Part shown: positions 1 to 22,970 of the stretch, in pieces
Position numbering within the stretch: position 1 is the first letter of the stretch
Layout: every line of letters starts with the position of its first letter
From: an uncultured cyanobacterium
GTDB taxonomy: Bacteria; Cyanobacteriota; Cyanobacteriia; CAKZMO01
Direction of reading: 5' to 3'
Length of the DNA: 64,000 nucleotides
Assembly (NCBI GenBank): GCA_963719515.1
Contig: CAVRCJ010000001.1
Span: forward strand, 256,001-320,000
The notes under the pieces: generated by a model
Told to the model about the DNA's origin: nothing
Database searches by the model: none
What the model saw: only the letters and a program-made list of their open reading frames with translations
Translations under genes and position numbers: made by a program

Positions 1-165
1 CATATCTGACGGATAACACCCTACTTTCCGTGATTATTCACCGCATCTGACGTCTAACTCCGGGAATCTAGGGTGTTATCCGTCGCTCTTGTCTGATAAC
101 CATGGGTTCTAGGGTATTATCCGTCACTTTTGTCAGATAACACCCCATTTAGCGGTGTTATCCCG
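1..165. promoter_or_regulatory. Array of alternating GGATAAC / GTTATCC motifs upstream of intI remnant (unit 1)
   Basis: About 7 motifs (e.g. 11-20, 71-81, 112-122, 136-145, 154-163). Aligns along its length with 21641-21805. Confidence 0.7.
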
Positions 166-174
166 TGATTAGCC

Positions 175-307
175 ATGTCGTCATCCCAGCCTCCTCGCCT
201 GCTCGACCAAGTAAAGCAGGTGCTTCGTACAAAGCAATTGCAGCCTCACAACTGAGGAGTCCTACATCCACTACATCCACGAATTCATCCTATTGCACGG
301 CGATCGC
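175..307 (+). pseudogene. intI: Integron integrase 5' remnant (N-terminal region only), frameshifted
   Basis: MSSSQPPRLLDQVKQVLRTK, then after removing one base HCSLTTEESYIHYIHEFILLH. This matches the IntI N-terminal pattern PRLLDQVR...HYS..TE..Y..WI..FILFH. It ends at a HIP1 site; no catalytic domain. Confidence 0.8.
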
Positions 308-315
308 CCCACAGC

Positions 316-525
316 AGAACTCCAGAACAAGCCAGCAGAACTGCCGAGTCGGTCTACAGAACTCCCAAGCAGCTCAACAGAACTCCCGAGCAGCATTTTA
401 GAACTCCTGAGCAGGTCAGCAGAACTAGCGAGCAGCACTACTCAACTCATTAGCAGCTCAACAGAACTCCAAAGCAACAATTTAGAACTGCTAAGCAGGT
501 CAACAGCACTCCTGAGCCGCGATCG
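316..525 (+). repeat. Degenerate 21-bp tandem array, 10 units, bounded by HIP1 sites
   Basis: Period-21 units starting AGAACT/AGCACT/TCAACT; one frame reads as heptads such as ELPSSST. Confidence 0.85.
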
Positions 526-574
526 CCCCCCCAAAGCGATCGCCCTCCCAAAGCAGAAAACCATCCCCACCCTC

Positions 575-604
575 TTGCCAAGCCGCGCACAAATGTCCTA
601 CCTT
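575..604 (+). promoter_or_regulatory. Sigma70-like promoter of module copy 1
   Basis: TTGCCA-N18-TACCTT; both hexamers and the spacing are identical in all three copies. Confidence 0.6.
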
Positions 605-605
605 A

Positions 606-826
606 TGGAGCTATGAGCCACAACCCATGGTTCTAGTCTCCCAAAGATTCGGTCTGGGCGGAGCCGCATGTTGTATGCGCAACATGCAGCCCCTAAGCCC
701 CCACGACAGACACTGGCTGTCGGGAACGGCCTGGAGTAATGATATTACCCGGCCATCCCAAAACCAAAAACGTCGCGGATGTCCGGTCGGCGGGGGGCTC
801 CAATTAACTCAAAAACGGAGTCCCTC
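606..826 (+). ncRNA. Putative structured leader RNA, copy 1
   Basis: Stems conserved and loops variable across three copies. Compensatory pairs present; a hairpin covers the SD. Confidence 0.7.
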
Positions 827-1174
827 ATGACAACTCAATATCATTCGCTGCCTCCCAAGGCGGCACAGTTCGCAGCGCCCCAAAACCCCGCTGCGGAACC
901 CGCAGCGCTGCGGTTAGACTCCCCCATGGAAGCCGAACCCGCTATCTCCACGCTGATTGAACCCTCCCCAGCGCCGGGCTGCGAGCATTTGCGCCACATC
1001 ATCATCGGCTCCCCCGAAGGCGTGCGCCAAGCCATCAACCGGCTGCACGTGCTGCAGTACGTCGAGTGGCGGCTGTGGACCCCGCTGATTGCCATCGGCG
1101 AAAAAGGCGTCCACATCACCCCCACCCAAGGCCAAGTGCTCAGCTACCTCATCCAGCAGCGGCCTATTCAATAG
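827..1174 (+). CDS. Hypothetical 115-aa protein, copy 1
   Basis: GGAG SD before ATG 827; core HLRHIIIGSPEGVRQAINRLHVLQYVEW is conserved in three copies. Confidence 0.8.
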   Translation: MTTQYHSLPPKAAQFAAPQNPAAEPAALRLDSPMEAEPAISTLIEPSPAPGCEHLRHIIIGSPEGVRQAINRLHVLQYVEWRLWTPLIAIGEKGVHITPTQGQVLSYLIQQRPIQ

Positions 1175-1198
1175 CTAGCCCCAGTACTTCACAAAATA

Positions 1199-1266
1199 CT
1201 CTGACTGCGATTTAGGGAGGGGAGGAAAGGGGGTAGAGTCAGGCTACCTAAAATCGAACTTTAGCC
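1199..1266 (-). other. Possible degenerate attC site
   Basis: Minus strand GGCTAAA-GTTCG-ATTTTAGG...CCTAAAT-CGCA-GTCAGAG, 5 bp after the PIN stop. GGCTAAA nearly complements GTTAGCC at 2600-2606. Confidence 0.4.
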
Positions 1267-1271
1267 ATGTC

Positions 1272-1688
1272 TCAATCCCCTTCTTCAGTTAGAAATTCTT
1301 CAGGAGAAAGTGCGGAAACCAGGGACTTTGTAAAATCTGAACCATTTCGGGTGATGATCGCCGCTGCCCCGCTTGCTGTAGCGGCTGCGCTAGTGACCGC
1401 GTCCTCAAAGTCCACCATGGTACTTTTAAGGGCCGTATGAATTACCGATTCTGTGATGCTAGCCACTTCAAGAATTTGCGCGATCGCCGAGAGAAGCCGG
1501 ATAGCCTCTTCCCTGCCGACTTTACGGCGCAGGATATAGAACATATTCGTGACTGCATGGCCAGCAACCATTCCCTCGTTACCGGGTACAGTTGCCCAGG
1601 TCAAAGCCTTCGCAGATTCAACCACGAAAGGTTGACGTTCCATCAACACATCCAGCAGAACATCACTATCAAAAAGAACTCGCTTCAA
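1272..1688 (-). CDS. PIN-domain toxin (VapC-like)
   Basis: VLFDSDVLLD, DFEDA and IITRN..DF PIN motifs. Confidence 0.85.
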   Translation of the reverse strand: MKRVLFDSDVLLDVLMERQPFVVESAKALTWATVPGNEGMVAGHAVTNMFYILRRKVGREEAIRLLSAIAQILEVASITESVIHTALKSTMVDFEDAVTSAAATASGAAAIITRNGSDFTKSLVSALSPEEFLTEEGD

Positions 1689-1930
1689 CCGTATTTCTTC
1701 TCTAGATAATCAATGTATGATGCTTGAGAATCTTGATCATCAAGTGGAACAGCGCCAACTAGACTCTGTACTAAGGGATGTAGCTCAGCCTTCCACGATG
1801 AATCAGGCTCAGGAACTTCTCGCGAAATGGAGTGGGGTTTCCTGAGCGACTCAAGCAAGCGAATCGCTACCTGCAAGCGCTCTTCTTGAGATAGCTGGCT
1901 TGCCGCTGCTAAGACTTCCTGGGCCGTCAT
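1685..1930 (-). CDS. Putative antitoxin partner of the PIN toxin
   Basis: Small ORF overlapping the PIN start; C-terminal YIDYLEKKY; GGAGG SD before ATG 1930. Confidence 0.65.
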   Translation of the reverse strand: MTAQEVLAAASQLSQEERLQVAIRLLESLRKPHSISREVPEPDSSWKAELHPLVQSLVGAVPLDDQDSQASYIDYLEKKYG

Positions 1931-2595
1931 ATTTTCCTCCAAGAACGATTGGCGGCTAGCTCTCGTACGGTTATTGGCGAGTAGGTCTTAATCGGCGTGA
2001 AGAGTTCGTGTTTACCAAGCTGTGCAAAGAGCGGGCCATCTGCGCTGAAGGATGATGACTTTGTAAGGGTATCGAGGCGGAAGTCGCGCCGCTGAAATTT
2101 GCCCTTACCCAAGTAGCCCCACTCGGCAAAGGTAATTGGCTGACCAGAATGCGTGCGCATTGTCAGCGCGTCACCATGTACGAGGTTTTGCGATAGCACA
2201 TAGGACGTAGCCCAATAGAGATCGTCCTCGTCATTTAGACTCAGGTACTCGGCAAAGATCGATACCATATTGGCGCGGCACTCAGCGATATTGTCCGCCA
2301 GTAGCTCAATTCCATAGGTACACATCAGCGCGAGCAGCGCGTAGTGCCGTCGCTCAAAGTCAGACTTACCATACTTGAGCTCTACAGCGGCGAGCTTGCG
2401 CTGAACCACCTGCACCAGAAAGTTGCCGCTGCCGCACGCCGGCTCTAGAAAGCGAGAGTCAATGCGCTCTGTCTCGTCTTTTACTAGGTCCAGCATTGCT
2501 TCCACCATCCACGGTGGCGTAAACACCTCTCCGTGGTCGGCAACACGCTGCTTGGACTTGACGTAGTTCATAGGCTGACGCTCTGCTGTAGTCAT
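1927..2595 (-). CDS. N6-adenine DNA methyltransferase-like subunit (SAM-binding part)
   Basis: GEVFTP and FLEPACGSGNFL motifs; no NPPY-type catalytic motif. Confidence 0.8.
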   Translation of the reverse strand: MTTAERQPMNYVKSKQRVADHGEVFTPPWMVEAMLDLVKDETERIDSRFLEPACGSGNFLVQVVQRKLAAVELKYGKSDFERRHYALLALMCTYGIELLADNIAECRANMVSIFAEYLSLNDEDDLYWATSYVLSQNLVHGDALTMRTHSGQPITFAEWGYLGKGKFQRRDFRLDTLTKSSSFSADGPLFAQLGKHELFTPIKTYSPITVRELAANRSWRKI

Positions 2596-2599
2596 TGTG

Positions 2600-2668
2600 G
2601 GCTAACTATATAACCAACACCTATTCAATAACACTCTACTTTCCCAAATCTTATCAAGCAATTCTGCT
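2600..2668 (-). other. attI-like site (unit 2) with partial GATAAC region
   Basis: Minus GTTGGTT-ATATA-GTTAGCC, then ATG 4 nt later. Homologous to 21578-21650. Confidence 0.7.
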
Positions 2669-2749
2669 AAGTAGTACTATTATATCTTTTGCGATCGCCC
2701 CCCAAAAGCGATCGCCCCACACCACACCACAAAAAACCGCCCCACCCTC

Positions 2750-2779
2750 TTGCCAACCCGCGCACAAATGTCCTACCTT
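2750..2779 (+). promoter_or_regulatory. Promoter of module copy 2
   Basis: TTGCCA-N18-TACCTT. Confidence 0.6.
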
Positions 2780-2780
2780 A

Positions 2781-3002
2781 TGGAGCTATGAGCCACAACC
2801 CACGGTTCTAGTCTCCCAAAGATTCGGTCTGGGCGGAGCCGCATGTTGTTGATCCCAACATGCAGCCCCTAAGCCCCCACGATAGGAGTTGGCTATCGGG
2901 AACGGCCTGGAGTAATGATATTACCCGGCCATCCCAAAACCAAAAACGTCGCGGATGTCCGGTCGGCGGGGGACTCCAATTAACTCAAAAACGGAGTCCC
3001 TC
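2781..3002 (+). ncRNA. Putative structured leader RNA, copy 2
   Basis: Same stems as copy 1, with CGATAG/CTATCG replacing CGACAG/CTGTCG. Confidence 0.7.
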
Positions 3003-3350
3003 ATGACAACTCAATATCATTCGCTGCCCCCCGAGGCGGCACAGTTCGCAGCGCCCCAAAACCCCGCCGCGAACCCATCCACGCTGCGGCTAGACTCCCC
3101 CATGGAAGCCGAGCCCGCTATCCCCACCCTCATCGAGCCCTCCCCAGCGCCGGGGTGTGAGCACCTACGGCACATCATCATCGGCTCCCCCGAAGGCGTG
3201 CGCCAAGCCATCAACCGGCTGCACGTGCTGCAGTACGTCGAATGGCGGCTGTGGACCCCGCTAATTGCCATCGGCGAAAAAGGCGTCCACATCACCCCCA
3301 CCCACGGCCAAGTGCTCAGCTACCTCATCCAGCAGCGGCCCATCCGATAG
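3003..3350 (+). CDS. Hypothetical 115-aa protein, copy 2
   Basis: Near-identical to 827-1174. Confidence 0.8.
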   Translation: MTTQYHSLPPEAAQFAAPQNPAANPSTLRLDSPMEAEPAIPTLIEPSPAPGCEHLRHIIIGSPEGVRQAINRLHVLQYVEWRLWTPLIAIGEKGVHITPTHGQVLSYLIQQRPIR

Positions 3351-3434
3351 CCGTCGGAACGACCCGCGATCGCCCCCAGAGCCGCCCACCTGGCCTCTAG
3401 GCGGCGATCGCCACCCCATCTCCTGCTCTGATAT

Positions 3435-4802
3435 CTATAGGGTTGCCAATATCTGCCGCGCCTGTTCAGGGCTAGGGAGCCTGTAGCTGCTCAAAGACTT
3501 CTCTTTTTCCCACAGCCACTTTTCTCCCGCCGTCAGCACGACCTTAGCTGCAATCTGCCAATCGCTAGGTATCTCCAAGCGATTGCCCTGCTCCCAAAGC
3601 GCCCGAAACGTTGTCAACCCATTCATATCCATAATCAGCTTCAGCGCAGCGGCCCCTACCGCACCAAAGTTGTGTGTATCGAAGCCATAGAACAACCCAT
3701 CATAGTGAAGAAAGACCGCATCTTTACCCGCCCCCTGAGGCCGTCTGGCATGAACGCCCCGTTGGACGGTCAGTGGATCAGTTCCCCACAGTTTTGGCTG
3801 AGACAGATCCCACTCTGAGCGATCGCTCATCGCCGAGTAATGAATGTAGGCCGGGCCATCGGGCCAGCCCCGCACCGCATTCCCGATTGTCAGCACGGTC
3901 AGGTGCTCGCGCAAAAAGCCCTCTACCTCTGCAAGGCTCTCCCCACGCTGATTCACAGATATCTGAATATATTGCTTCAGGGCCTGGCAAAGTTCTGTAG
4001 ACGACCGACTGTAGGCTAGCCAGACTAGCGGCTGACGGGCAGACTTGCTTGCCTCCAGCAGCTGAATCGCATGCTCTCCAAAGATTGTGCGGACACGGCC
4101 ATACATCGATAAGATCGTTTCAATGCGATCGCGCTGCCGGCGATCAAACACCGCCGTGTCTTCCCGCAGCTCTGGCATGATGCCAGCCCCTTCTAGCTCC
4201 GGTCGTTTCACCTCTACAAACACCCGGGTCTCTGCCTGCAGCGGCACTACAGCTTCTCCCTGGTCCATGTCACTTCCCAAATGCATATGAGCCATCTGGA
4301 TGCCTAAAATGGGCTGATACTGCTCTTCTAGTCTCTGCAGGGCCGTCTGTTCTCCTTCCCAACCCGCTTTAACGCTATGCAGCGTATTTAGCCCTGGCGT
4401 GAAAATGACCTGCTCCCCATTGTCCTGGGTTCCAAAATTCAAGTGGTTTCTAATAAACTGCAGCGGCTGAGGCTGAGCCATCACCCGCTCAAAGAAGACT
4501 GCTGCCCCGTTCTGGTCAGGAATCGAAAAGTGCCCGCAGTACCCCTCGTCGTAGCTAGCCGTAAAAGCCATTTCCCGCAGCTCTGGCTTCTCCATATCAG
4601 CCTGCCTGACTTGAATATCCGCAGGCAGGTCCGCACCAAACAGCTTTTCTAGATTACTGAGCGTTGGTTTAAGCGCAAACAGCTGGTCTTTGGAAAGGCC
4701 CAGGTTGAGCAGAGCCGTTATCTCCTCAACCTCTGTATTGCGATCTTCCGCTGGCCGAGGCGTTGCTTGATGACGAAATTCTTTATTCATGGGCGTTTGC
4801 AA
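3435..4802 (-). CDS. Hypothetical protein, 455 aa
   Basis: Long ORF; no family recognised. Confidence 0.65.
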   Translation of the reverse strand: MQTPMNKEFRHQATPRPAEDRNTEVEEITALLNLGLSKDQLFALKPTLSNLEKLFGADLPADIQVRQADMEKPELREMAFTASYDEGYCGHFSIPDQNGAAVFFERVMAQPQPLQFIRNHLNFGTQDNGEQVIFTPGLNTLHSVKAGWEGEQTALQRLEEQYQPILGIQMAHMHLGSDMDQGEAVVPLQAETRVFVEVKRPELEGAGIMPELREDTAVFDRRQRDRIETILSMYGRVRTIFGEHAIQLLEASKSARQPLVWLAYSRSSTELCQALKQYIQISVNQRGESLAEVEGFLREHLTVLTIGNAVRGWPDGPAYIHYSAMSDRSEWDLSQPKLWGTDPLTVQRGVHARRPQGAGKDAVFLHYDGLFYGFDTHNFGAVGAAALKLIMDMNGLTTFRALWEQGNRLEIPSDWQIAAKVVLTAGEKWLWEKEKSLSSYRLPSPEQARQILATL

Positions 4803-5155
4803 GCACCGGACGTTGGGTGATATCTAGCGCTCACTACTATACTCCACAGTCCGGGTGAATTTTGCTTGTCAGGTGGCAGGGCTAGGCGATGGCAGCGGGC
4901 AGACTTCCATCGCCTGAACCACTCTCTGCTCAAGGGCAATTGGCTGGCTCTAGCGCTCAGGGCAGAAATTCAGACGGGCTGTCTGTCTGGCCGACTGCAT
5001 GGCGGGACAAAAAATACGGAAGTAACCCTGTCGCTCACGCCCTTTCGAGCAGCCAGCTAGCCATTTTTTCCATCACTCTGCTAGTGACCTCTTCTCTGTC
5101 CTGCAACAGTTGATGGCCTGTCGTGTCCTCGACCCAGAAGCCTTCCGTTAGGGGG

Positions 5156-6001
5156 GGGAGCATGTCAGGTTTGCAAGCAGGACGGAGAGGATAGAGGCAC
5201 TTAGCCCAAGGTGCCAGACGATGACTCCCGAGGCTGCTTGCGCTTGAGCGCCAACGTCTCCTACGCCCAAGCAGCAGATGACGTGGAATACCTCATAGGG
5301 GTTCGAGTTGCTGCTAAGACTCAGCAGCGCATCGTGCAACGCCAGGCGTTTTGCCCTCCTGCAAGGCAGCAGCTTAAAGAAGTTAGCGTCGACGGCGGGA
5401 AAGTGCGGCTGAGAATAGCGCTAGGAGAGCCTTGCAGATGGAAAGACTACAAAGCAGTTGACACTGATGAGGGTGTTGTCGTGGCCAGCTACCGGGACAA
5501 CGCTACCCTGACGCAGTGGGTCAGCAACCGCTCTCAGCGCCTTTGACGGCTCTAGGCAACGGGCATGACGGGGTATGAAATATCGTCAGCCAGATGAGCA
5601 CCTCAGACCAAAGGCGTGAGATTCTCGACTGGTATCACCTGGTGGAAAACCTGCACAAGGTGGGCGGCTCTGTCAGACGGCTCAACCGAGCCGAGGCCCT
5701 GCTATGGCAAGGAAAGGTAGATGAGGCTATAGCACTATTCGTTGGCCTTAAGCGCCGGGAGGCAAAGAACTTCTACAACTACTTGTGCAAGCATCGCCAC
5801 CGCATCATCAACTATCACTACTACCAGCAAGAGCAGATTTGCTCTATTGGTTCTGGGGCTGTTGAGTCAGCTATCAAGCAGGTAGGCCGCAGAGTCAAGA
5901 TCTCAGGAGCGCAATGGAACGAAGAGAACGTCCCTCAGGCGCTGGCGCATAGGCGCGCTTATCTCAACGGCCTGATTGGTTTACAAAGGTGACATGCTCC
6001 C
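5156..6001 (+). mobile_element. Defective ISKra4-like insertion sequence
   Basis: TIR GGGAGCATGTCA / TGACATGCTCCC. Fragmented transposase (VSVDGGKVRLR; REILDWYHLVENLHK; IGSGAVESAIKQ) with frameshift and 5' deletion. Confidence 0.8.
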
Positions 6002-6006
6002 AACAA

Positions 6007-6411
6007 TCAACCTGTCACTAAGCCAAATACAAAGCTGCCAAGGGCCAAGAAAAATCCAATCCCCCAAGCAAAACTTCGAAAAGGCGTTATCCCAGCCGCA
6101 TAGAGCAAAAGATGAAGCAGTCGGGTGATAAAGAAAACGACTGCAGCGGCCTGCGTCCATACGTTTGAAACACCTGCCACCGCGGCAATCAGAATCAGCG
6201 GAGCAAACAAAGACAGACCTTCAACATGATTCCGAACGGTTCGAGTCAGGCGACCATGTAAAGGTGTCGCTCCCTTAAAGTTGTGATCCTGCTCCCGGTT
6301 AGATAAAGCATACTTGGCGCCCACTGCTTTATCGAGAGCAATCTGTTGAGCAAAAATGGTCAGCCATAAAGTTGCAGCAGCACCAAGCAGGGCCCAAAGT
6401 TCAATAGTCAT
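6007..6411 (-). CDS. MAPEG-family membrane protein
   Basis: R..RNHVE.L..F and FFITRLLH motifs; hydrophobic helices. Confidence 0.8.
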   Translation of the reverse strand: MTIELWALLGAAATLWLTIFAQQIALDKAVGAKYALSNREQDHNFKGATPLHGRLTRTVRNHVEGLSLFAPLILIAAVAGVSNVWTQAAAVVFFITRLLHLLLYAAGITPFRSFAWGIGFFLALGSFVFGLVTG

Positions 6412-6550
6412 GATTTTTCCTTGAAAACGGCAGCTAGTTGTGTTGCGGAACTAGAGTTTTGATACCTTGAGACATTTCGCGGAGATACCAAAAGGATAGG
6501 GATACTTTGGAGAAGAAATACTATTCCTTTGGTTATTCAAATACGTGACT

Positions 6551-6748
6551 CTAGCCGAATATCTGACCACCCACGGCATAGCCCCCTTCAGCCGTTTCCT
6601 GAATATGAACATTGATAAACTGCTTGATATCTCCCTTACCAGACTCCTTCGCCACAGTATTCAATGCTTCAGTAAAAAGCTCAACAATTTTGGCTTTTTC
6701 TGCTTTGTTCCAAGCTTTTTGAGGAACAGTCAATCTGATCGTAGGCAT
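6551..6748 (-). CDS. 4-oxalocrotonate tautomerase-family protein
   Basis: N-terminal Pro after Met; ~65 aa; VHIQE....YAVGG. Confidence 0.75.
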   Translation of the reverse strand: MPTIRLTVPQKAWNKAEKAKIVELFTEALNTVAKESGKGDIKQFINVHIQETAEGGYAVGGQIFG

Positions 6749-6871
6749 GATTCGATTTCCTTAAGATGATTTGATGACATTGGGCAACAAGCTCTGTGAT
6801 AGATGGCCATAGCCATTAATCAACAGTTGTTGCAACAGAAGCTGTACAAGCTTCAGATGTGATTCAGCAGT

Positions 6872-7351
6872 TTAGGAAGCGATCGCTTCGACTGGAAACT
6901 GAACTTCCACCACCATTTCTCCCTTATGGCCAGGCTCCGGTGGCACAATAAAGACCTCTCGACCTGGTCCAGTTAGTCTGTATTGATGGTTTTCTGCCCA
7001 GGTACCAATGGCGCTGTAAGAGAGATGGCCATTTTCAGGGCCCCCAAATCGCATAGCCGTCACCGCCGTGGAAACGGCAGGTAATTCTCGGACCTTCATC
7101 ACGGCATCTTGGGAGATGGTAACGGTGAGATCGAGACTTTGATTGAGCGAGAAACCAAACTCCAAGTCCTAGTTAGACTCTTCATACAGCTCTCCATGGA
7201 TCACCGCCGCAAAACGCCCCAATGCTTTAGCTTCAACCTGCTCGGCCACCGCCTGTCTCATTTGGGAGATGGCAGCGAGGGCTTCAGTCAAGTCGCTGCA
7301 GGTGCGCCGCAGTGAGAGAAATGGTTGGGCAGGCAGGCTTTTCAAGACCAC
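6872..7351 (-). pseudogene. GyrI-like effector-binding domain remnant of a MerR-type regulator
   Basis: Two in-frame ORFs split by TAG at 7169; Y.L.GP.REVF...EVQFPV; 5' end missing. Confidence 0.6.
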
Positions 7352-7610
7352 ATCGTCATCTTGAAATCGATATTACGGCTCGGACTCGGTTCAGCAATTA
7401 CGAGCGGTTGGGGGTGCCGGAACTTTGGCGCTTTGACGGCACTGGCTTGGAAATCTATGTGCTGCAGGAGGGGCGCTACACTCGCTCAGGCGAGAGCGCT
7501 CAGTTCCCTGGCTTTGCCCTGCCGCAGGTGATTCCAGAGTCTGTAGCGCAGAGTAAGACGTAGGGTAGGATGGCGACGATAAAGGCGTTTCGGCAGTGGG
7601 TAAATGCGAA
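7350..7610 (+). pseudogene. Uma2-family endonuclease C-terminal fragment
   Basis: LEIDIT...YERLGVPELWRFDG; no N-terminus; internal stop. Confidence 0.7.
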
Positions 7611-7777
7611 GTGCTGACTGCCAGTTTAAAGGGGCACGGCGTGAGCGATGGTGTGCGGCTGGGGGCGAGGGACGAAGTCGTTCAGTAGTTATGGCCCTAA
7701 CACAAAAAATCTGAAGAAATCTGGGAATGGACTGGATTGAGGGTGTAGCTTTAGAGATATCGTACCCTCGTCCTCTT

Positions 7778-8197
7778 ATGTCAACCAACGACACGCCTCA
7801 GTCGAATCGCTCTGTTCAGGTTGGCGGCAGCGTCACCGGCAGCGCCATCACGACCGGAGACAACAACACAGTCTCAGTTCAGTTTCAGCCCGCCTCGCTG
7901 CCTCAACCAGAGACGGTTAATATTCAGGCAGAACTCAAGGCATTGCAGGCCATTCTAGTCAGCCTAGATGACCCGATTGCCACTGGCGTGGCTCAGAAGC
8001 TGGAAGTGGAGGCGAGCAAGCCCAAGCCGGACAAAAGCGTTGTGGAGACGACGCTAGAAACTGGGTTGACCTATGCCAAGAACCTATCGGGGTTTGCCGA
8101 GGCGATGTCTAAGCTGCAGCCCCACGTTGAGGCAACGGCGAGCTGGCTAGGAAAGCATGGCTATAAGCTGCTGCCTTTAGTTGGCCTGGCCCTTTAG
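7778..8197 (+). CDS. Small protein with N-terminal G/S/N-rich amyloid-like motif and helical C-terminal domain
   Basis: SVQVGGSVTGSAITTGDNNTV resembles the N-terminus of the downstream STAND protein. Confidence 0.75.
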   Translation: MSTNDTPQSNRSVQVGGSVTGSAITTGDNNTVSVQFQPASLPQPETVNIQAELKALQAILVSLDDPIATGVAQKLEVEASKPKPDKSVVETTLETGLTYAKNLSGFAEAMSKLQPHVEATASWLGKHGYKLLPLVGLAL

Positions 8198-8232
8198 CAG
8201 CTTGAGGTGATCCGTATTAACCGAAAATTTCC

Positions 8233-12153: not shown

Positions 12154-12262
12154 GTGAATGGGATGACACCAGACTATCTGATTGATACCAACATCCTAAT
12201 TTTGCTGTTCAACAACCAGCTCACCGAACCAATCCCCGCCGGAGAGCTAGCCTACTCAATCA
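12154..12262 (+). pseudogene. PIN toxin N-terminal fragment
   Basis: YLIDTNILI...YSIIS, then similarity ends. Confidence 0.5.
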
Positions 12263-12277
12263 TTTCTCCCCGCTCCT

Positions 12278-12853: not shown

Positions 12854-13072
12854 TACCGCTGGCGAAATATTTTGTAATCGAGTTGCACGCTTTCGAGGCC
12901 CCCTAACCCCCAATTCTGGGGGAACCGGAGCAGTGGCCATACTATTCGCGGCTATTGCCTTTAAGGAGTTCTAACCTCTCTGAAGTCCTCTCAATTGGGG
13001 GATTGAGGGGGCCTTCTCCGGGGCAGGAAATAGCCGAGATGTAACAAGACATGAAATTCGCCAGCGGTATCA
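12851..13072. mobile_element. MITE-like element with internal REP-like palindromes
   Basis: 16-bp perfect IR TGATACCGCTGGCGAA / TTCGCCAGCGGTATCA; internal CCCCCAATTCTGGGGG. Confidence 0.65.
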
Positions 13073-13192
13073 ATAAATGATAGAAGAGGCTGCTTTACAA
13101 GTCTCCCTGTAGAATAGTGAAGCTTTTCAAACGCCCTCTAAGCGAATCTTGCCGAACTGAAGCGATTTTCGCCATCTTACTGGCTGAAGCAA

Positions 13193-14467: not shown

Positions 14468-14826
14468 GCGAGGGGGGATGTGACCGACCATGGGTTGGCT
14501 ACAGCTCGGGTCGCGTGAGCGTTACCGGGCCGCATGAAGTGATTGTGGTTTGCAGTGGCGGTCAGGTGGATTCTCTAGGCACGATGGATTTGGGATTTCC
14601 GCTGGGTTTGGATTCGGAACGCTCTGAATCTCGATGATGAATCGGTATCAACTCGTAGAATGTATTCCGCTAGGGGTGGCTTGAGGTGAGATGCCTCGGT
14701 AGCGAGCTCCTGTTCTAGCTGTGGGGGCAAATCCAAAGTGATGTTCACGGCCATGCTCTCCTGCGACAGCTCTATTCTATTACTGCGCAAATTTCTGCGG
14801 GCTGACCTATGCAGAAGGAGGCTACC

Positions 14827-14912
14827 GCACAACGGTGAAGTGCAGCGGCGGCAGGCAAGCTTGAACGCTCACCGATAACCTCTGTACCGTCCGCACCAAC
14901 GAAGTGTTAGGT
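14827..14912 (-). other. attC site
   Basis: Minus ACCTAAC-ACTTC-GTTGGTGCGGACGG...CCGCCGCTGCAC-TTCACC-GTTGTGC, just after the HEPN stop. Confidence 0.85.
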
Positions 14913-14917
14913 GGCTG

Positions 14918-16693
14918 CTATTGATCTCGGTAACTTTTCGCATAATACAGACAACCAATAAGACTACTTGCTCCTTCTGCAGCTGCTAAACACTCATAGC
15001 CTGTTTCATCCTGCGTAAAGTGTAGTTCAACTTTATTGACAAAGGTTCGCAAACCAAGCAGAGCTTCTTCAATCTTTTCTTTAGTAATACTCAATAATGG
15101 TTCTGGATGATCTTGAAAACAAGTTTTTAGATCTGTATGAGCAACCCGACGGTTCCTATGCTTTCTTGCAAAGTCGCAGCTATTCTTTATGATCTCTAGC
15201 GTTTCTACCAACTCTGCTTTCAGTTGAACCAATGATATAGCAATCCTGTTTGATTTATGGAAAGGAGCCATACCTGTGCAGTTTGGGGAAATCGAAAGTA
15301 TCCAACCTGAAGAACTGCTCAAACAGGGCTTTGAGTGCCGGAAACGATGGACACAACCCAGACATCCGCCTAAGCCAGGTCTTGCCTTGAAGCCAAGCAT
15401 CTTCAATCGGGTTCTGAGTCGGGTCATTGGGGGCAAAACGAACACAGTGAATCTTCCATTCTTCTTGCGTAAGCCCCTCGTTCACCTGGGCTAGATACTC
15501 CTTAAGCTCGCCAGAGCGATGATAGCTGGCCCCATCCCAAAGAATGAGTAACCGCTGGTGGGGAAACTGAGCTTGTAAAGACTTCAGGTAAGCAATGGTA
15601 CAAGCGGTGTTGCCCTTCTCATGCGCTTCGATAAATAACCGCTTGCTCACTAGGTCCACTGCCCCGTAGTAGGTTTGGCGCTCTCGCTCATTGACAACCG
15701 GCACTACCACCCGCTCATCAGTTCGCCCCCAAACATATCCTTGTAGGTCACCGCTCAGAAGGTGACACTCATCAAAGAACAGCACCCTCAGCTGCCCTTT
15801 GGCAATCGCCTCGCGGTAGAGCGCCAGCAGAGCGCAGATTTCGGCTTTTTTGCTGCCACCGCCTTAGCGTCCGCCTTGGGGTTGACCTTGCCGCTCTTCT
15901 TCCAGCTGATGCCAGCAGCCTCAAACAGGTCGTAGTAGCTTTGCTTCGACTCGTAGGCCACATCGTACACCTCAGCCAAGTGGTGCTCCAATTCGCTCAA
16001 CTCCCAAATCGCCTTTTGCTGTAACCAGCTCAGCACCGCTGCCTTCTGCTGGGTCTCTAGATAGCTTTTTCGGCCCTTGTGCTGGGGCTTAAAGCCAGCT
16101 ACGCCCCAGCTTTCGTAAGCTTGTTTCCAGTTGCTCACGGCTCCCATCGATACATCGAGTATCCCGACGATCGCCTCATACCTATAGCCTTGGTAGAACA
16201 GCTTCACCGCTAGTGCCTTTTTCACTTGCCTGCCATCTCGTTGTTGACGGATGAAGGCTTTGAGCTCCTCCACTGCAGCAGTTTTATTAGGTTTAGCGGG
16301 TGTCGTTAGCATTGCTCAGGGCCTCTCAGTATCAGCGCTTTAGTCTCCTCCGTAATTATACTGGCCCTACTTCACGAATCACCTCGGATTGCTATAGGTC
16401 AACACTATCTAGTATTCTCGCTAAGGTTAAATTTTCTTTGTTGCCAGCTTTTGAAGAATCAGTTAAACGGCTAATTGACAAATTGACAAGATGATGTCAT
16501 TCAAGAATACAGACTGACAAATACCAAAAAAAGTGGGGGCAGACTCATTTAGCAAATCAACTATTTCTTCATCTTCATATAATTGAGAAAACAAGAGCCA
16601 TTTTAGATGTAGTTCTCCAAGCTCTTCCGAAATAGCTTGAAGCAATTCGTCTATTTTCTGTGTCATTTTCTCAGCCTTTCGTCTTAAGATCAT
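14918..16693 (-). pseudogene. HEPN-domain (AbiU2-like) gene broken by IS630 and an 8-bp duplication
   Basis: Removing both lesions restores ...DIILSISRLTD...NLTL...VDLSLVQL...RKHRNRRVAHTD (R-x5-H). Confidence 0.8.
15238..16394 (-). mobile_element. IS630-family element, two-ORF transposase
   Basis: Ends TAGCAATCC / GGATTGCTA with TA duplication; FFDECH, ILWDGASYH, NPIE motifs; AAAAAAG slippery site at ~15845-15851. Confidence 0.92.
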
Positions 16694-17547
16694 AGACCCA
16701 TTTGTCGAATGTAATTTTGATCAGGATAAACATCTGGCTGTCCCATCCTTACAACTCTATAAAATGCTTCATGAACTATTGCTGGAGGTTTATCATCAAA
16801 GCAATCACCAAAAGGAATTGGAAATCCATCAGGGTGTATTTCAATATCTTCCATGAAGCCAATCATTTTGCCATACTGCCAACAATCAATGATACTAATT
16901 ATTGAGAGTTCAGGCTCAAAGAGAGATAGTTGTTCGGAGCTAGATGTAAGCTTTGGTGAACCAATGATAACAACTCTATCGCCAGGATATGTGATTGTGA
17001 CTTCACTGAGAGAGCCTGGAATGCAAGAATCATTTGCTAACTTAATTAAGCTTGAAGGATCATCTTCAGATCTAGTCGTAAGTAGTATATGATCTCGAGC
17101 CTTGCAACCCCAAAAATTAATAGGTTTAGGTTTATCAGCCAACCAATTTTCATATCTAAACAGGAGAATAATTCCTTTTGAATAGCAAGTCCATCGGAAT
17201 GTAGTGTTTACATCCAACCTATGAATTCCTGCATGAATTGAGGTTGCGCTTTTGTCAAATTCTTCATAGACAACTTCTTCGACAGCCGATATTGCTTCTT
17301 GCAGAGGTATCACAAAAAATTCTCGATTAGCCTTATATCGATACTTCTTTAATTTTTGATGAATTAATTTTTCAGCTAAAACACAATCAGGGACATCTCT
17401 TTCGTAACAAATGCTAAATTGTTCAGGCAATCCTGTTGTAAACAACTCTTTTACCCTTTCCCGCACATTCCGCTCTGTTCTCCCGATCTTAAGCATGTTC
17501 TCAGGTAGTACAGAATTTTGCAGAATGTAAACAGAACCCGCAGACAT
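16690..17547 (-). CDS. GIY-YIG (T5orf172-like) domain protein
   Basis: GSVYIL.N...LKIGRT...ERVKEL...AEKLIH..L..YR....REFF. Confidence 0.85.
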   Translation of the reverse strand: MSAGSVYILQNSVLPENMLKIGRTERNVRERVKELFTTGLPEQFSICYERDVPDCVLAEKLIHQKLKKYRYKANREFFVIPLQEAISAVEEVVYEEFDKSATSIHAGIHRLDVNTTFRWTCYSKGIILLFRYENWLADKPKPINFWGCKARDHILLTTRSEDDPSSLIKLANDSCIPGSLSEVTITYPGDRVVIIGSPKLTSSSEQLSLFEPELSIISIIDCWQYGKMIGFMEDIEIHPDGFPIPFGDCFDDKPPAIVHEAFYRVVRMGQPDVYPDQNYIRQMGL

Positions 17548-17700
17548 TGAATGCAGCCTCTTTTATGAACTGTGCTGGAGAACTCAGAGATACATCAATA
17601 TATTTCCCAATTGAACGGATTCAGGAACAAGTCTTCAAATTATTCAACGTTTAAAGCTTACAGACAAGTTTCAAGGATGCCCTTGCCGAGGATTGAAGCC

Positions 17701-17785
17701 ACCTAACGTTGAAGCTGAGCGGCGGCCAATATTTTTGCACCGAGCCTGGATTGTAGATTCCGTCCGCTCCTGCATGAGGTTAGGC
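17701..17785 (-). other. attC site
   Basis: Minus GCCTAAC...GCAGGAGCGGACGG...CCGCCGCTCAGC-TTCAAC-GTTAGGT. Confidence 0.85.
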
Positions 17786-17942
17786 TGCCGAATTGGATAT
17801 GTTGTCGGTGTCCGCATCAGGGACTATGTTAGGCTAAAAACACTTGCTTCAAGAACTCATAAGCATGTTGCGTTCTCAAAAATCTATCGATGCGGTAGTA
17901 AGAGCTACTGTAGGGAACGCAACCTACAAGATTGGCAGGCGC

Positions 17943-19832
17943 TTATGATCTAAGATCATTTGCACGACAACGAAGCCCTTCTACTGCATCAATAATTGTC
18001 TTTTGCACCTCACTGCTACCAACACGGATTGCTAGAGCAACAAGGTTTTGGTATTTGTCAAGCCAGCCTTCCCATTCTTTGACATATCCCTCATAAGCAT
18101 CCTCGTAGTCATGTAGAAGTTTACCTGCATGGCTTTGTTTGGCAAAATTAATATGTTGGTTGGATATATCTACAGCTGCTTTGCTACACCTATCGAGAGC
18201 CTCTAGCTTTTGCTGCGCTGCATCTTTGAGTATGGTATTACTTTGTGTAAGATTAGTTGCATTACCAGAATCAAAGTCTAATTCGACTTCTCCGAGAGGC
18301 ATTTGAATCGTAGCCTTCTCAAACATCGGTAATCCGATACTGCGATGCAGCCACTCAAAGGGGAGTACTTTCTCAAGAAAAACACGGTGCTTTTGGGGCC
18401 TGAGATAAGAAATTAAGTTGTCGTCAAACTCGTAGTCAGTCCTATTACTTGGAATTTCAGGAATTGAAACCTCATCACGAATACCGAACCGCTCTTCAAT
18501 CTCTTCAACCCTCACTTTCACTCGAGCAGCAACTGCGTCTGTCCTCTTTTCGAACACGATTCTCACACCTTCTTCGAGATTGGCCAAGTAGTTCTCTACT
18601 TTCTTATTAACAACTTGAGTCCCATACTCCTGAATATGCTGGAATAGCCGATTCATGTAGCTCGCAGGTAGTTCCGATGGATTTGGGAAGGGTAAAGCAA
18701 GGTCACGAGGTTGAATTTTGGGGTACTGAAGGGCTTTGACAACCCCTTCATATAGATGCAATTCCTTTATTTCTTTTGCATGTGCAGGGAGTTCCACTTG
18801 TGACAACTGAATGAGTCGTTCACACAACTTGAGAAGTACTTCTCGATCCTTTCTACATAGGACACCCAATGCGGAAAGAGAGTCAGCGACGCGCTCAAAT
18901 GAGCCAGCCGCAGCAAAAACTCTGCTGTTGCCTGAGATGACTACAAAATCACGAAGAATCTGAGTGAACTCGTACTTATCCTGCCACTTATTTAGAACTG
19001 AGCGGGCGGAGACTGCATATATACGAGCATCATTTGCATTTGCCCCACGATTTTGAAGCTTTTGAACAAATTTACGTTTCAGCTTCTCAAAATACTCAAG
19101 TGATGGATCTTCATCAGCCTTATTCACTATAAATATCGTAGACTTTAGGCGATTTTGAAAGCAATCCGCCAATCCATCGAGACCTCCACTGCCTCTGATT
19201 TCAACCGAGTCAGAGTTGTTAAGGAGCACCAATGCGAGATCAGCTTTCTGTGTCGAGTATCTTTCAGCGAGTAACTGCTGGCGTTTGTTGCCCAAAGTGA
19301 ATCCTGGAACATCTGCAAGATCGATACGCCGTAGGATATCTGTGGGAACACCCACAGTCACACCTTTGAGACGCTTAATATTATCACGGTTATACTCCTC
19401 ATCAAGAAGGCTACGGAGATGCCTTTTTAGTTCAGAAGGATCAAGCCCTTCCAAGTGTATGGCGTGCTGTGGAATTTCTGAGGTTACTTTGAGCTCGTGC
19501 TCTCTAGAGAAACTAACTACTGCGGGAAAAGTTGTGCATGCCTCAACAGGTCCTTCGGGAAGCAAATTGTAGCCAAGTATTGCATTGATGAAGCTAGACT
19601 TACCGCCACCTCTGCCTCCAACAATTGCGACTAAAATCCGGCCATCAGCAACACGCTGAGCAGCTTCCTTTAAATCAGAAACGATTATGTCAGCTGCTGC
19701 TAATGTTGCCTTTGGCAAGCCCTCTGGAAGAATACTGCGGAAGAGTTCCTCGATTTCGTGGGTTGCTGATTCAATTGTGCCAATAGCGCGCTCTTCTCTT
19801 TCTCTTTCTGTAAACTTTTGTGGTTGAGACAT
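17943..19832 (-). CDS. Dynamin-like GTPase
   Basis: G1 GGRGGGKSS, G2 ACTT, G3 DVPG, G4 NKAD, YAVSAR; helical C-terminus. Confidence 0.85.
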   Translation of the reverse strand: MSQPQKFTEREREERAIGTIESATHEIEELFRSILPEGLPKATLAAADIIVSDLKEAAQRVADGRILVAIVGGRGGGKSSFINAILGYNLLPEGPVEACTTFPAVVSFSREHELKVTSEIPQHAIHLEGLDPSELKRHLRSLLDEEYNRDNIKRLKGVTVGVPTDILRRIDLADVPGFTLGNKRQQLLAERYSTQKADLALVLLNNSDSVEIRGSGGLDGLADCFQNRLKSTIFIVNKADEDPSLEYFEKLKRKFVQKLQNRGANANDARIYAVSARSVLNKWQDKYEFTQILRDFVVISGNSRVFAAAGSFERVADSLSALGVLCRKDREVLLKLCERLIQLSQVELPAHAKEIKELHLYEGVVKALQYPKIQPRDLALPFPNPSELPASYMNRLFQHIQEYGTQVVNKKVENYLANLEEGVRIVFEKRTDAVAARVKVRVEEIEERFGIRDEVSIPEIPSNRTDYEFDDNLISYLRPQKHRVFLEKVLPFEWLHRSIGLPMFEKATIQMPLGEVELDFDSGNATNLTQSNTILKDAAQQKLEALDRCSKAAVDISNQHINFAKQSHAGKLLHDYEDAYEGYVKEWEGWLDKYQNLVALAIRVGSSEVQKTIIDAVEGLRCRANDLRS

Positions 19833-20193: not shown

Positions 20194-20280
20194 GCATAAC
20201 GTTCCGGTTGAGCGGCACAGAGCGACCTAAACGATAGACGAAAAAACTCTCAACTGTCCGCTCCAACCGGGTTGTTATGC
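20194..20280 (-). other. attC site
   Basis: Minus GCATAAC-AACCC-GGTTGGAG...CTCAACC-GGAAC-GTTATGC; the upstream gene's TAA lies inside the inverse core. Confidence 0.92.
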
Positions 20281-21408
20281 ATGGTTTCTACGTCTAATTT
20301 CGTCTATCAAACTCATTTTCGCTAGTTCTTCATAACTGTCTATTGAATGCAAAAATGCAATGTTCTTGTTATTAGATTTATCTATCAAATCCATAAGAGC
20401 ATTAGCATTGTTCAACTGCCTTTCAGATAATGATTCAAAATCACCGACTATATTTTCTCTTGTATTAGTATTTATATAGCTGAAAAGCTTGCCCATTAAA
20501 CCAACAAAAACATCTGAAGCCTGAACAAACAAATTGCTTTGCGAATCAATAAAAGAATAATTTTTTATCTCTTGGTTATTATCGATGATCGTATATTTTG
20601 AAATAATTTCCGAAATACTCACCTCATTATCAAAAATGTGCCCTGAATTCTTAAATAAATATATAGGCCTTAGATAAAATTGCGAAAAATTCTCTATTAA
20701 GATATGGTCTTCTTCATCCATTATGAATGGAAGCGAGTTATTTTTCTTTGCTTCTTTAAGTATCTGACTAAGGGATTCTAATCCAAAATGAAATTCTTGC
20801 GTGTCAATGTATTCGTCAAATATTGAAGTTAGTTCTTTAATAAATTCTAAAACTGATTCCTTTTTAAGGTTAGGATAACCAGAATTGTAAAACAGTTCAG
20901 TCACCAAGCCGATTTCAAGTCTCGCAAGTTTGTACAGATCATTCTTTAGATGATTTGAGAAACCTATCCCTAACTGCATTGCTGTTTCTGAGTTTGCAAT
21001 TGCAGAATCAACTATGTCAGCAATAGACCAGTAAAGAATATTTAGGCTCGAATAGTGAATGTATAAATCATGCTCTAAGAGGCATCTCAAAAAGATATTC
21101 AGCTTTTCAGATTTTAAGCAATCGAGAAATTCACCCTTAGCAATGTGCTTGAGCTTTACTTCTACAATATTCTTTTGTAGGTTAAGCTTATCAAACAAAG
21201 GTTTAATGTCAGGTTGGTTTCCTTCATAAACCAAACCGCCTAAAACAAAATTTAAATTAAAAGAAGAATTGAAGTTTTCCCCCCTCACATAGAACTTTCT
21301 AATATTATTCGTTTCGTCATAATAAAAAATGAAAGAACCGTCAAAGTTTGCTGTCGGTGCAAGCATTTTAGCCATACTTCTAACATCGCTGACATCAAAA
21401 TCGATCAT
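20275..21408 (-). CDS. DUF3800-like (RNase H-like) protein, very low GC
   Basis: FYYDETNN...FVLGG...E.K...QASD.F.G pattern. Confidence 0.7.
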   Translation of the reverse strand: MIDFDVSDVRSMAKMLAPTANFDGSFIFYYDETNNIRKFYVRGENFNSSFNLNFVLGGLVYEGNQPDIKPLFDKLNLQKNIVEVKLKHIAKGEFLDCLKSEKLNIFLRCLLEHDLYIHYSSLNILYWSIADIVDSAIANSETAMQLGIGFSNHLKNDLYKLARLEIGLVTELFYNSGYPNLKKESVLEFIKELTSIFDEYIDTQEFHFGLESLSQILKEAKKNNSLPFIMDEEDHILIENFSQFYLRPIYLFKNSGHIFDNEVSISEIISKYTIIDNNQEIKNYSFIDSQSNLFVQASDVFVGLMGKLFSYINTNTRENIVGDFESLSERQLNNANALMDLIDKSNNKNIAFLHSIDSYEELAKMSLIDEIRRRNHA

Positions 21409-21441: not shown

Positions 21442-21527
21442 GCATAACGTCGAAGCTGAACCGGACCGCCGACTTGGCCGTCGCCGGACGGTTAAGAGGC
21501 GGTGTCTGTTCCAGCGAAGTGTTGTGT
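21442..21527 (-). other. attC site of an ORF-less first cassette
   Basis: Minus ACACAAC-ACTTC-GCTGGAAC...GTTCAGC-TTCGAC-GTTATGC. Confidence 0.85.
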
Positions 21528-21577
21528 TGGCGCTCTCGCTAACAGGGTTCCCGAGCGGCAACATATAGCCTGCGTCG

Positions 21578-21596
21578 ACACAACTATATATTCAAC
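21578..21596 (-). other. attI-like site (unit 3)
   Basis: Minus GTTGAAT-ATATA-GTTGTGT; the core complements the inverse core of the next attC. Confidence 0.75.
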
Positions 21597-21602
21597 GTCA
21601 GA

Positions 21603-21805
21603 TCTGACGGATAACACCCCACTTCCCAGATTTTATCAGGCATATCTGCTGGATAACACCCTACTTCCCGTGATTATCCGCCGCATTTGACATCTAACCT
21701 CGGAAATTCAGGGTGTTATCCGTTACTTTTGCTAGATAACCCTGGTATCTAGAGTGTTATCCATCGCTTTTGCTGGATAACACCACCATATCGGGCGTTA
21801 TCCAG
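21603..21805. promoter_or_regulatory. Array of alternating GGATAAC / GTTATCC motifs (unit 3)
   Basis: About 9 motifs between attI and the intI start. Confidence 0.7.
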
Positions 21806-21814
21806 GAGTTAATT

Positions 21815-21898
21815 ATGCCACCATCACAATCGCCCCGTCTGCTTGACCAGGTAAGACAAGTCCTTCGTACAAAGCGTTACAGCCTCAAAAAAGCCTGA
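21815..21898 (+). pseudogene. intI: Integron integrase 5' remnant
   Basis: AGGAG SD, then MPPSQSPRLLDQVRQVLRTKRYSLKKA*. Confidence 0.75.
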
Positions 21899-21980
21899 GT
21901 CTTCGTAATTGCTGGCCAAAGGCCAATTCCTATTCATCTGCACAAGTTTGCTTCATTACGTGCAGCGATCGCCCCACAGC

Positions 21981-22190
21981 AGAACTCTCAAGCAATTCAG
22001 CAGAACTGCCGAGTCGGTTTACAGAACTGCTGAGCAGCATTTTAGAACTGCCGAGCAAGATCCCAGAACTGCTGAGCAAATTAGCAGCACTAGCCAGCAG
22101 CCCTGTTCAACTCAGCAGCAGCTCAACAGAACTCCAAAGCAGCAATTTAGAACTGTTGAGCAAGTTAGCAGCACTCCCGAGCCGCGATCG
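21981..22190 (+). repeat. Degenerate 21-bp tandem array, 10 units, bounded by HIP1 sites
   Basis: Similar unit for unit to 316-525. Confidence 0.85.
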
Positions 22191-22220
22191 CCCCCCTGGG
22201 CAAAAACCACCCCTACCCTC

Positions 22221-22250
22221 TTGCCAACCTGCGCACAAATGTCCTACCTT
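22221..22250 (+). promoter_or_regulatory. Promoter of module copy 3
   Basis: TTGCCA-N18-TACCTT. Confidence 0.6.
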
Positions 22251-22251
22251 A

Positions 22252-22468
22252 TGGAGCTAAGAGCCGTCCACGGTTCTAGTCTCCCAAAGATTCGGTCTGG
22301 GCGGAGCCGCATGTTGTGACACCAACATGCAGCCCCTAAGCCCCCACGACAGGCATGGGCTGTCGGGACGCCTGGAGTACATGTTACCCGGTCATCCCAC
22401 CTCCCAAAAACGTCGCGGATGTCCGGTCGGCGGGGGACTCCAACACAATTCACAAAATGGAGTCCCTC
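22252..22468 (+). ncRNA. Putative structured leader RNA, copy 3
   Basis: Most diverged copy; stems kept, loops changed. Confidence 0.7.
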
Positions 22469-22843
22469 ATGACAACTCAATATCTTTCGCTGCCCTGCGG
22501 GTCGGCACAGTTTGCAGCGGCCCAAAACCCCGCTGCGGACCAGTCAGCGCTGCGGCTAGACTCGCCCCTAGAAGCTGAACCTGCTATCCCCACGCTAGTC
22601 GAGCCTTCCCCAGCTCCGGGGTGCGTTGGCCCTTCAGGGCCAGTCGAAGACTCACACCTAAGGCACATCATCGTTGGCTCCCCCGAAGGCGTTCGCCACG
22701 CCATCAACCGGCTGCATGTGCTGCAGTACGTTGAGTGGCGTCTGTGGACACCCCTAATCGCCATCGGTGAGCAGGGCCTCCATATCACCCCCGCCCAAGG
22801 GCAAGTGCTCAGCTACCTCGTGCAGCAGCGCCCCATCCGATAG
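22469..22843 (+). CDS. Hypothetical 124-aa protein, copy 3
   Basis: Homologous to copies 1 and 2, with a 9-codon insertion. Confidence 0.8.
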   Translation: MTTQYLSLPCGSAQFAAAQNPAADQSALRLDSPLEAEPAIPTLVEPSPAPGCVGPSGPVEDSHLRHIIVGSPEGVRHAINRLHVLQYVEWRLWTPLIAIGEQGLHITPAQGQVLSYLVQQRPIR

Positions 22844-22970
22844 TCGCCCCTAAAGCGATCGCCCCCCAGGTGCTGACCATGAGGGGCGATCGCCTATTTC
22901 AACAAGCTGTGCCGCGAGCTAGTCTGGCACGCCAAACGTAGCTTTTGCCATCGCGACAGAGAAGAGTGGG

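Follow-up and report, generated by a model that had tools for sequence, protein, structure and literature searches.

Why should one and the same small gene, preceded by a long folded RNA leader, stand three times directly to the right of integron remains in which the integrase gene has been cut down or lost? The question is raised by a window of 64,000 nucleotides (nt) (contig C1:256001-320000) from an uncultured cyanobacterium, whose genome of 5.28 Mb in 21 contigs is rated 100% complete and whose close protein relatives bear Elainellaceae names. Here, we use the term module for a promoter-like region, an ~215-nt leader, and an open reading frame (ORF) of 115-124 amino acids (aa); the window holds three copies, each to the right of integron parts. 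The explanation that we favor, and consider reasonably likely, is that frozen integron platforms are joined to an autonomous, translation-gated small gene, which would be in ancient synteny with the integrase gene intI and has outlived it. The three units are made up as follows (window coordinates).

1-174, + strand: unit 1 multi-repeat array, GACGGATAACACCC-type motif in direct and inverted orientation between attI and the intI start; extends 57 bp left of the window
175-299, + strand: unit 1 intI stub, ~40-45 N-terminal codons of an integron integrase gene, interrupted by a stop and a frameshift
300-531, no strand: unit 1 21-bp array, ~11 units of the CAGAACTCCCGAGCAGCTCAA type
575-604, + strand: unit 1 promoter-like pair, TTGCCA (575-580), 18 nt, TACCTT (599-604); position kept in paralogs
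612-826, + strand: unit 1 leader RNA, predicted helices P1-P7; the 3' arm of P7 holds GGAG and abuts the ATG
827-1174, + strand: unit 1 small ORF, 115 aa, open and without stops
2602-2690, + strand: unit 2 attI-like junction CTAAC/TATATAACCAAC (slash at the junction) with the first part of the array only, from the platform alignment
2750-3350, + strand: unit 2 promoter-like region, leader, and 115-aa ORF (3003-3350)
21580-21814, + strand: unit 3 attI-like junction ACAAC/TATATATTCAACG and multi-repeat array, crossover near 21584/21585
21815-21899, + strand: unit 3 intI stub, ~25 codons
21965-22196, no strand: unit 3 21-bp array (repeat finder, tandem repeat analysis)
22221-22843, + strand: unit 3 promoter-like region (TTGCCA 22221-22226), leader, and 124-aa ORF (22469-22843)

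The module, its leader, and its protein

A first-pass annotation had placed the module at 575-1174, 2750-3350, and 22221-22843, and these positions hold. A repeat finder run on the window returned three-copy repeat families of ~600 bp at 557-1177, 2732-3353, and 22203-22846, and the ORFs at 827-1174, 3003-3350, and 22469-22843 translate without a stop into proteins of 115, 115, and 124 aa. The same tool found two two-copy repeats shared by units 1 and 3, namely 1-235/21641-21875 (75% identity) and 300-531/21965-22196 (83%).

The conserved pair TTGCC(A), 17-18 nt, TAnnnT is what suggests a promoter. A profile of the leader that follows has 50 hits in the window genome, ~47 of them directly before an ORF of the family or its remnant, and a terminator scan found no terminator between leader and ORF. 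For 34 paralogous leaders RNAalifold predicted 36 base pairs, 22 of which show compensatory changes. We then placed seven helices (P1, next P2 as the closing helix of a junction formed by P3-P6, and finally P7) as a model on an alignment of 31 leaders from the window genome, a sister genus, and several other families. The model pairs 84.8% of the cells versus 30-45% with partners slid by 1-3 columns, both-sided changes occur in 35 of its 47 pairs, and none of 500 shuffles reaches the observed values, which are somewhat biased in the model's favor since the model itself came from one of the aligned sequences. P7, whose 3' arm extends to the start codon, occurs in variants such as GGACTCC/GGAGTCC, GTTTTCT/AGAAAAC, and GATTCCT/GGAATCC. 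This combination of covariation and position points to control of translation initiation, which the leader would gate.

Rfam at gathering score returned only a tRNA in the window and nothing for the leader; at E up to 10, positions 1-3500 yielded nothing relevant to it either. Outside the window genome, the leader was detected before 13 of the 20 family ORFs fetched from other families. All leaders also carry a nearly invariant, single-stranded stretch, CCCAAA(A/G)A(T/A)TT(C/T)GGTC (window 641-655). Within it CCAAAAATTTGG is self-complementary in most copies, and its 3' end contributes the 5' strand of helix P2.

Searching the window genome with the 115-aa protein gave 54 matches, which merge into 50 loci; ~42 of these are apparently intact and the rest truncated. 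Family members measure 92-125 aa; in the alignment the N-terminal half is variable (and probably disordered), and the C-terminal ~65 residues are conserved with the pattern RH-I-IGSP-GV...LH...Y-E...W...GQV-SYL. A search of 1.84 billion representatives with a protein profile (E up to 0.001) collected 286 clusters, which contain small proteins exclusively, and matches in the ESM Atlas are unnamed cyanobacterial clusters only. Searches of Pfam, NCBIfam, and PADLOC assigned no family to the small proteins of the window and 16-17 diverse relatives, and a PDB sequence search with the family profile gave no match. The C-terminal domain was modeled with a predicted local distance difference test (pLDDT) score of 87. 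A wide VIA-align search with this model reached a best Z of 2.7, and Foldseek on an earlier whole-protein model a best E of 0.27, so the predicted domain has no clear match among solved structures.

Of 301 Cyanobacteriia genomes sampled, 92 contain matches to the ORF profile, often many per genome; counted by genus, the family is present in 57 of 149. Within the window genome, identity among the seven closest ORF copies is 77-95%. Upstream of six of them stands a platform or a 21-bp array, in whole or in part; the seventh (C10:679140) has neither. Among these seven, the ratio of nonsynonymous to synonymous substitution rates (dN/dS) is 0.07-0.25 at synonymous distances (dS) of 0.15-0.66, marking them as old duplicates under purifying selection and bearing out the earlier proposal that the module is selected. 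A 9-residue insert before the conserved domain, VGPSGPVED (window 22622-22648), is distributed patchily across paralog subgroups and missing from the closest relatives of the copies that carry it, which suggests exchange between copies.

The 21-bp arrays had been counted among the integron parts, a view that we do not retain. Period-21 arrays of other sequence also flank modules without integron parts: 13.8 units stand directly upstream of the module at C3:657583, and further arrays lie near C11:189839, C10:120594, and C8:130330. Thus, the array belongs with the module and not with the integron. As a guess, it could provide phased protein-binding sites. The open frame running through it was set aside as a sign of coding, since the consensus unit from Tandem Repeats Finder, translated by hand, has no stop in any forward frame.

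Two other repeats recur around module copies of this genome. An ~400-bp element, 99% identical between copies, lies 0.2-2 kb downstream of several modules (e.g., C11:33598-33995; also on C3, C6, and C19), and a second, of ~125 bp, is repeatedly present upstream of others. The two resemble miniature mobile elements.

Integron platforms and the decay of intI

Integrons are described as intI plus attI plus cassettes, and control of the integrase is best known via LexA in Proteobacteria. The integron reading of the remains in the window is supported by three kinds of evidence, in agreement with the first-pass annotation: an N-terminal IntI stub, a common attI-like junction with unrelated DNA on its left, and three attC sites.

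The stub of unit 1 matches positions 12-44 of PF13495 (E 0.11) and is found by tblastn with the IntI of a relative (E 4.8e-4). Contig C18 holds the best-preserved stub in the genome; it reads ...FILFHDKRH fused to MIYTHVLNRGGRGVRSPLD and aligns with positions 2-39 (E 3.9e-6) and 295-314 of TIGR02249. The stubs described earlier are thus present, and their start codons had to be moved to 175 and 21815.

For unit 1, an attI had been expected ~60 bp left of the window. On the contig, the junction ...GGCATAAC/TATATATTCAACGTCAGATCTGACGGATAAC... is placed 57 bp left of position 1, and its sequence is the one present at window 21582-21600. The pattern anticipated at this place, GTT-N4-ATATA-GTTRRRY, is found on the minus strand as GTT-N4-ATATA-GTTATGC, one departure from GTTRRRY. 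Unit 2, as had been proposed, consists of the attI-like junction and ~90 nt of the array only, after which the platform alignment jumps to the module. The full array occurs in five platform copies (units 1 and 3, C18 at ~29.4 kb, C11 at ~445.5 kb, and C14 at ~59.5 kb), the truncated unit 2 and a degenerate copy at C18 ~21.9 kb being partial. Its motif is dense: GATAAC/GTTATC occurs seven times in the 256 nt before the unit 3 stub and five times in window 1-176, versus 0.22 per kb genome-wide. When five to six platform copies are aligned, similarity starts exactly at AAC/TATATA (slash at the crossover) and the left flanks are unrelated, as expected after attI x attC exchange. The C11 and C14 copies have neither stub nor module within the 5 kb fetched.

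Near-identical junctions stand upstream of intI remnants in another cyanobacterial family, and comparable inverted-repeat arrays upstream of full-length intI in relatives. Some of the relatives' integrons (loci L104, L105, L107, and L025) carry at least three tandem ~40-nt units between attI and intI, each holding an inverted pair of the type TAAnnnCCC...GGGTnATTAGG. These arrays are the counterpart of the GGATAAC array described here, with lineage-specific motifs.

In all three units intI has decayed and the module is intact, as first noted, and the four different deletions (units 1, 2, 3, and C18) all end upstream of the module's promoter-like region. The stub deletions of units 1, 3, and C18 end at different points. 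We considered whether the stubs are nested products of one ancestral deletion; this is unproven, as the deletions of units 1 and 3 overlap but neither lies within the other, and separate loss from intact copies fits equally well. Five genomes contain intI remnants in which the first codons (37-68 in most cases) are joined to the last 18-40: L112 (G000:C18) keeps 1-37 and 295-313, L030 (G011) 1-45 and 274-313, L064 (G008:C339) 1-44 and 297-314, L107 (G249:C71) 1-68 and 296-313, and L031 (G005:C14) 1-106 and 284-313. Such recurrent internal deletions spare both ends of the gene; overlap of its 3' end with the upstream region of the downstream module may be a cause.

A full-length intI was found neither in the complete window genome nor in four other genomes of the genus. 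In the former, TIGR02249 gave stub matches only (28 and 20 bits, cut-off 265), tblastn with a relative's IntI likewise returned stubs only, and the single tyrosine recombinase is an unrelated one. Without an integrase in the genome, the cassette arrays are static now. Across the wider family, intI matches occur in 15 of 17 genomes and exceed the TIGR02249 cut-off in only 5 of the 17, so decay of intI is common.

Cassettes would lie to the left of the platforms, on the minus strand. The sites and genes in question are the following.

1272-2595, - strand: genes left of the unit 2 junction (PIN toxin, antitoxin, truncated N6-methyltransferase) in a cassette-like position
17701-17785, - strand: attC, R'' ACCTAAC ... 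R' GTTAGGC as read on the + strand; a longer variant, 17701-17834, folds with z ~-1
17943-19832, - strand: cassette gene for a dynamin-family GTPase with a weak LeoA match (profile match)
20194-20280, - strand: attC with 7/7 R-box pairs, unpaired spacers, and a bulged L box; fold z -5.4 and -4.3 versus shuffles
20275-21408, - strand: cassette gene for a DUF3800 protein, PADLOC PDC-S51 candidate defense protein (E 1.8e-136)
21442-21527, - strand: attC of a tiny first cassette, fold z -1.9 and -3.0; the cassette's opening bases (TTGTGTCGACGC) are matched by its own R'' region

All three sites left of unit 3 have the layout R''-spacer-L''...L'-spacer-R', and they amount to at least two attC within 4 kb, the criterion for integrons and for clusters of attC sites lacking integron integrases (CALIN), as judged by our own motif-anchored scan and not by IntegronFinder's model. 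A PDC-S57 gene lies just beyond the attC-bounded genes of unit 3. Further attC-type sites occur left of the unit 1 and C11 junctions, and a strict attC pattern finds five sites genome-wide, four of them beside platforms. A generic attC scan was discarded (86 hits versus 147 on the reversed sequence, thus no enrichment); as relaxed scanning is noisy, our counts rest on the motif-anchored sites. No attC was recognized left of unit 2, in 3351-17700, or on C18, so for the greater part of the 18 kb separating units 2 and 3 a cassette array is not demonstrated.

Three side observations concern the surroundings. Just left of the window, at G000:C1:255020-255110, a tRNA T-arm-like GGGGAATCGAACCCC motif adjoins the attC of unit 1 and may be a fragment of a tRNA gene. 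Window 8233-11943 encodes a 1236-aa STAND NTPase (nSTAND1) with 14 WD40 repeats, its DNA containing 12 copies of a 123-126-bp repeat. At 15255-16312 lies an IS630-type transposase, split into a helix-turn-helix ORF and a DDE_3 ORF, which adjoins a HEPN/AbiU2-like gene (14918-15445).

The small gene beside intI in other genomes

Is the neighborhood of module and intI a peculiarity of this genome? The first-pass annotation had predicted that homologous modules would be enriched beside integron parts elsewhere, and for intI they are. In the same family, the ORF lies within ~1 kb of the 3' end of intI or of a stub at 12 of the 22 intI-bearing loci fetched, including two of the three full-length intI genes with flanking sequence. 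In genus g4, where the module is convergent with intI, this applies to 3/3 loci of G008 (two of them full-length) and 4/5 of G007; G008 has only 8 matches to the ORF family in 6 Mb. Co-directional arrangements, as in the window, are found in G003 (three of four loci), G001, and G011. In a second cyanobacterial family the ORF stands at four of six intI loci, among them a full-length intI in G225, with the ORF ~200 bp downstream, and three intI remnants in G249. In the latter genome, the stop codon of intI is closely followed by a TTGACG-N17-TAAACT pair and then by a divergent leader. The intI-linked ORFs of G003, G001, G225, and G249 are of a shorter type, the "MFQ" subfamily.

With at most ~57 copies per ~6 Mb, chance adjacency would be below 1% per 1-kb window, and with five genera, two families, two orientations, and two subfamilies involved, chance is hard to invoke. 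At the level of genome comparison, we thus regard the association of the ORF family with intI as real. The further claim that the module is a fixed, integron-specific part of the platform is not supported: the window genome has ~50 copies, mostly with unrelated flanks, and the attI/array copies on C11 and C14 stand without a module.

Competing explanations and biological meaning

How, then, would the pieces fit together? The platforms would be frozen chromosomal structures composed of an attI junction and a multi-repeat array of putative IntI-binding sites, in which deletions with end points differing per copy have presumably cut intI to a stub. The minus-strand genes to their left would be cassettes, those of unit 3 bounded by three attC and including candidate anti-phage genes. 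To the right, the promoter-like region would drive an autonomous small gene whose leader (P1, a long-range P2 closing the P3-P6 junction, and P7) probably gates translation of the 92-125-aa protein, the 3' arm of P7 carrying ribosome-binding purines up to the start codon. The gene would be one of ~50 paralogs, and its position just downstream of intI would be old, recurring in at least two cyanobacterial families. From this recurrence we infer that IntI and the small gene probably work together or are regulated together in some way. As it would not depend on IntI, the module has survived every deletion that removed intI.

Several findings weigh against this explanation. The protein lacks a recognizable fold or family, and a strict scan for the sigma-70 consensus did not return the module's promoter-like pair. 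The spread of the ORF family over 92 of 301 genomes is far wider than a link to integrons needs, and most module copies have no integron parts nearby. The ORF is missing at 10 of the 22 and two of the six intI loci, including all four from the genus of G014, G015, and G016; loci without it are found in G005, G006, G009, G014, G015, G016, and G002 and at the full-length intI of G003. Its orientation varies, being convergent with intI in one genus and co-directional elsewhere. In a tree, the intI-linked ORFs are not monophyletic (the topology forces at least seven label changes), copies group by genome, and many cases of adjacency are within-genome duplicates and hence non-independent.

A rival explanation is pure hitch-hiking, in which the small gene is unrelated to integrons and a single pairing of one copy with an integron was spread by local duplication and horizontal transfer. 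We judge this unlikely. In its favor, some adjacency is to be expected of a gene with up to 50 copies per genome, the ORF family is far more widespread than the adjacency, and the flanks of most copies are unrelated. Moreover, core genes lie beyond the module (chlH in the window; tocopherol cyclase and an rlmN-like gene in relatives), so the module may merely mark the chromosomal edge of the island, and integrons tied to one fixed neighbor gene are known in other bacteria. What hitch-hiking explains poorly is that the adjacency recurs in five genera and two families, in both orientations and both ORF subfamilies (main and MFQ), and that every intI deletion spares the module.

Alternatively, the module could be an accessory integron component, an RNA-gated small protein controlling intI expression or the use of attI, for instance via the 21-bp or GGATAAC-type repeats, with the dispersed paralogs as a radiation into other roles; we consider this improbable.

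Less probable again is the proposal of the first-pass annotation, in which the platforms are non-autonomous and continue to rely on an integrase supplied in trans from another locus, the module being a part for integron maintenance, addiction, or regulation. It gains from the different DNA exactly at the attI crossover of the platform copies, which means that site-specific recombination at attI happened at some time, from the intact module at the six platform-linked copies, and from the modules beside intI in other genomes. The difficulty is that no candidate enzyme exists in the genome or its four congeners. In addition, the dS values between units make the copies old, recognizable attC are limited to three left of unit 3 (with none found left of unit 2 or on C18), and most family members are distant from any integron part. 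Finally, the idea that dispersed modules act as portable homology, with recombination between copies moving and multiplying platforms, is very improbable: the two clusters of three direct-oriented units (window and C18), the 77-95% identity of the seven closest copies, six of them with platform or 21-bp array parts, and the patchily shared VGPSGPVED insert speak for it, but the left borders of the units coincide with the attI crossover and thus point to site-specific rather than homologous recombination, and no direct trace of recombination junctions came to light, though no search aimed at them was made.

Returning to frozen platforms joined to an autonomous gene, we can compare both halves with known systems. 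Integrons, intI pseudogenes, and integrase-less arrays have been published for bacteria including Cyanobacteria (in the parts of PMC4889954 and PMC2426708 covered here), and the sections of Cury et al. 2016 (PMC4889954) that we drew on report integrons in Cyanobacteria and 279 CALIN, 15 of them with intI pseudogenes nearby. As far as those sections describe sedentary chromosomal integrons and CALIN, the platforms resemble them in the attI-like junction next to an intI remnant, the lost integrase, and the attC-bounded, mostly single-gene, one-strand cassettes with toxin-antitoxin and defense-type cargo. They differ from that description in having several decayed tandem platforms per genome, a long multi-repeat array between attI and intI, and a conserved non-cassette gene with a structured leader on the intI side (PMC4889954). 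Non-exhaustive full-text literature searches, including the covered portions of PMC4889954 and PMC2426708, returned no description of the module.

The leader itself is reminiscent of riboswitch-type leaders that mask the ribosome-binding site, as a multi-helix junction is followed by a hairpin over Shine-Dalgarno-like purines abutting the start codon. The ~50 leader copies in one genome all precede paralogs of one small protein, which is unusual for riboswitches, and there is no Rfam match. Another parallel is offered by multi-copy type I toxin-antitoxin mRNAs of the hok/sok kind, in which a short gene has a long folded 5' region hiding its translation start. The module shares with these the many chromosomal copies and the start hidden by a folded 5' region. 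On the other hand, its protein of 92-125 aa is, judged by eye, not hydrophobic as type I toxins are, and the dN/dS values and breadth of distribution fit an ordinary cellular family.

An ~215-nt structured RNA with strong covariation and a small-protein family present in about one-third of the sampled cyanobacterial genomes, in up to ~50 copies each, were found in no library searched, and both are directly testable in cultured strains. For the biology of integrons, a conserved neighbor of intI in cyanobacteria would offer a candidate for integron control or for the persistence of platforms after loss of the enzyme.

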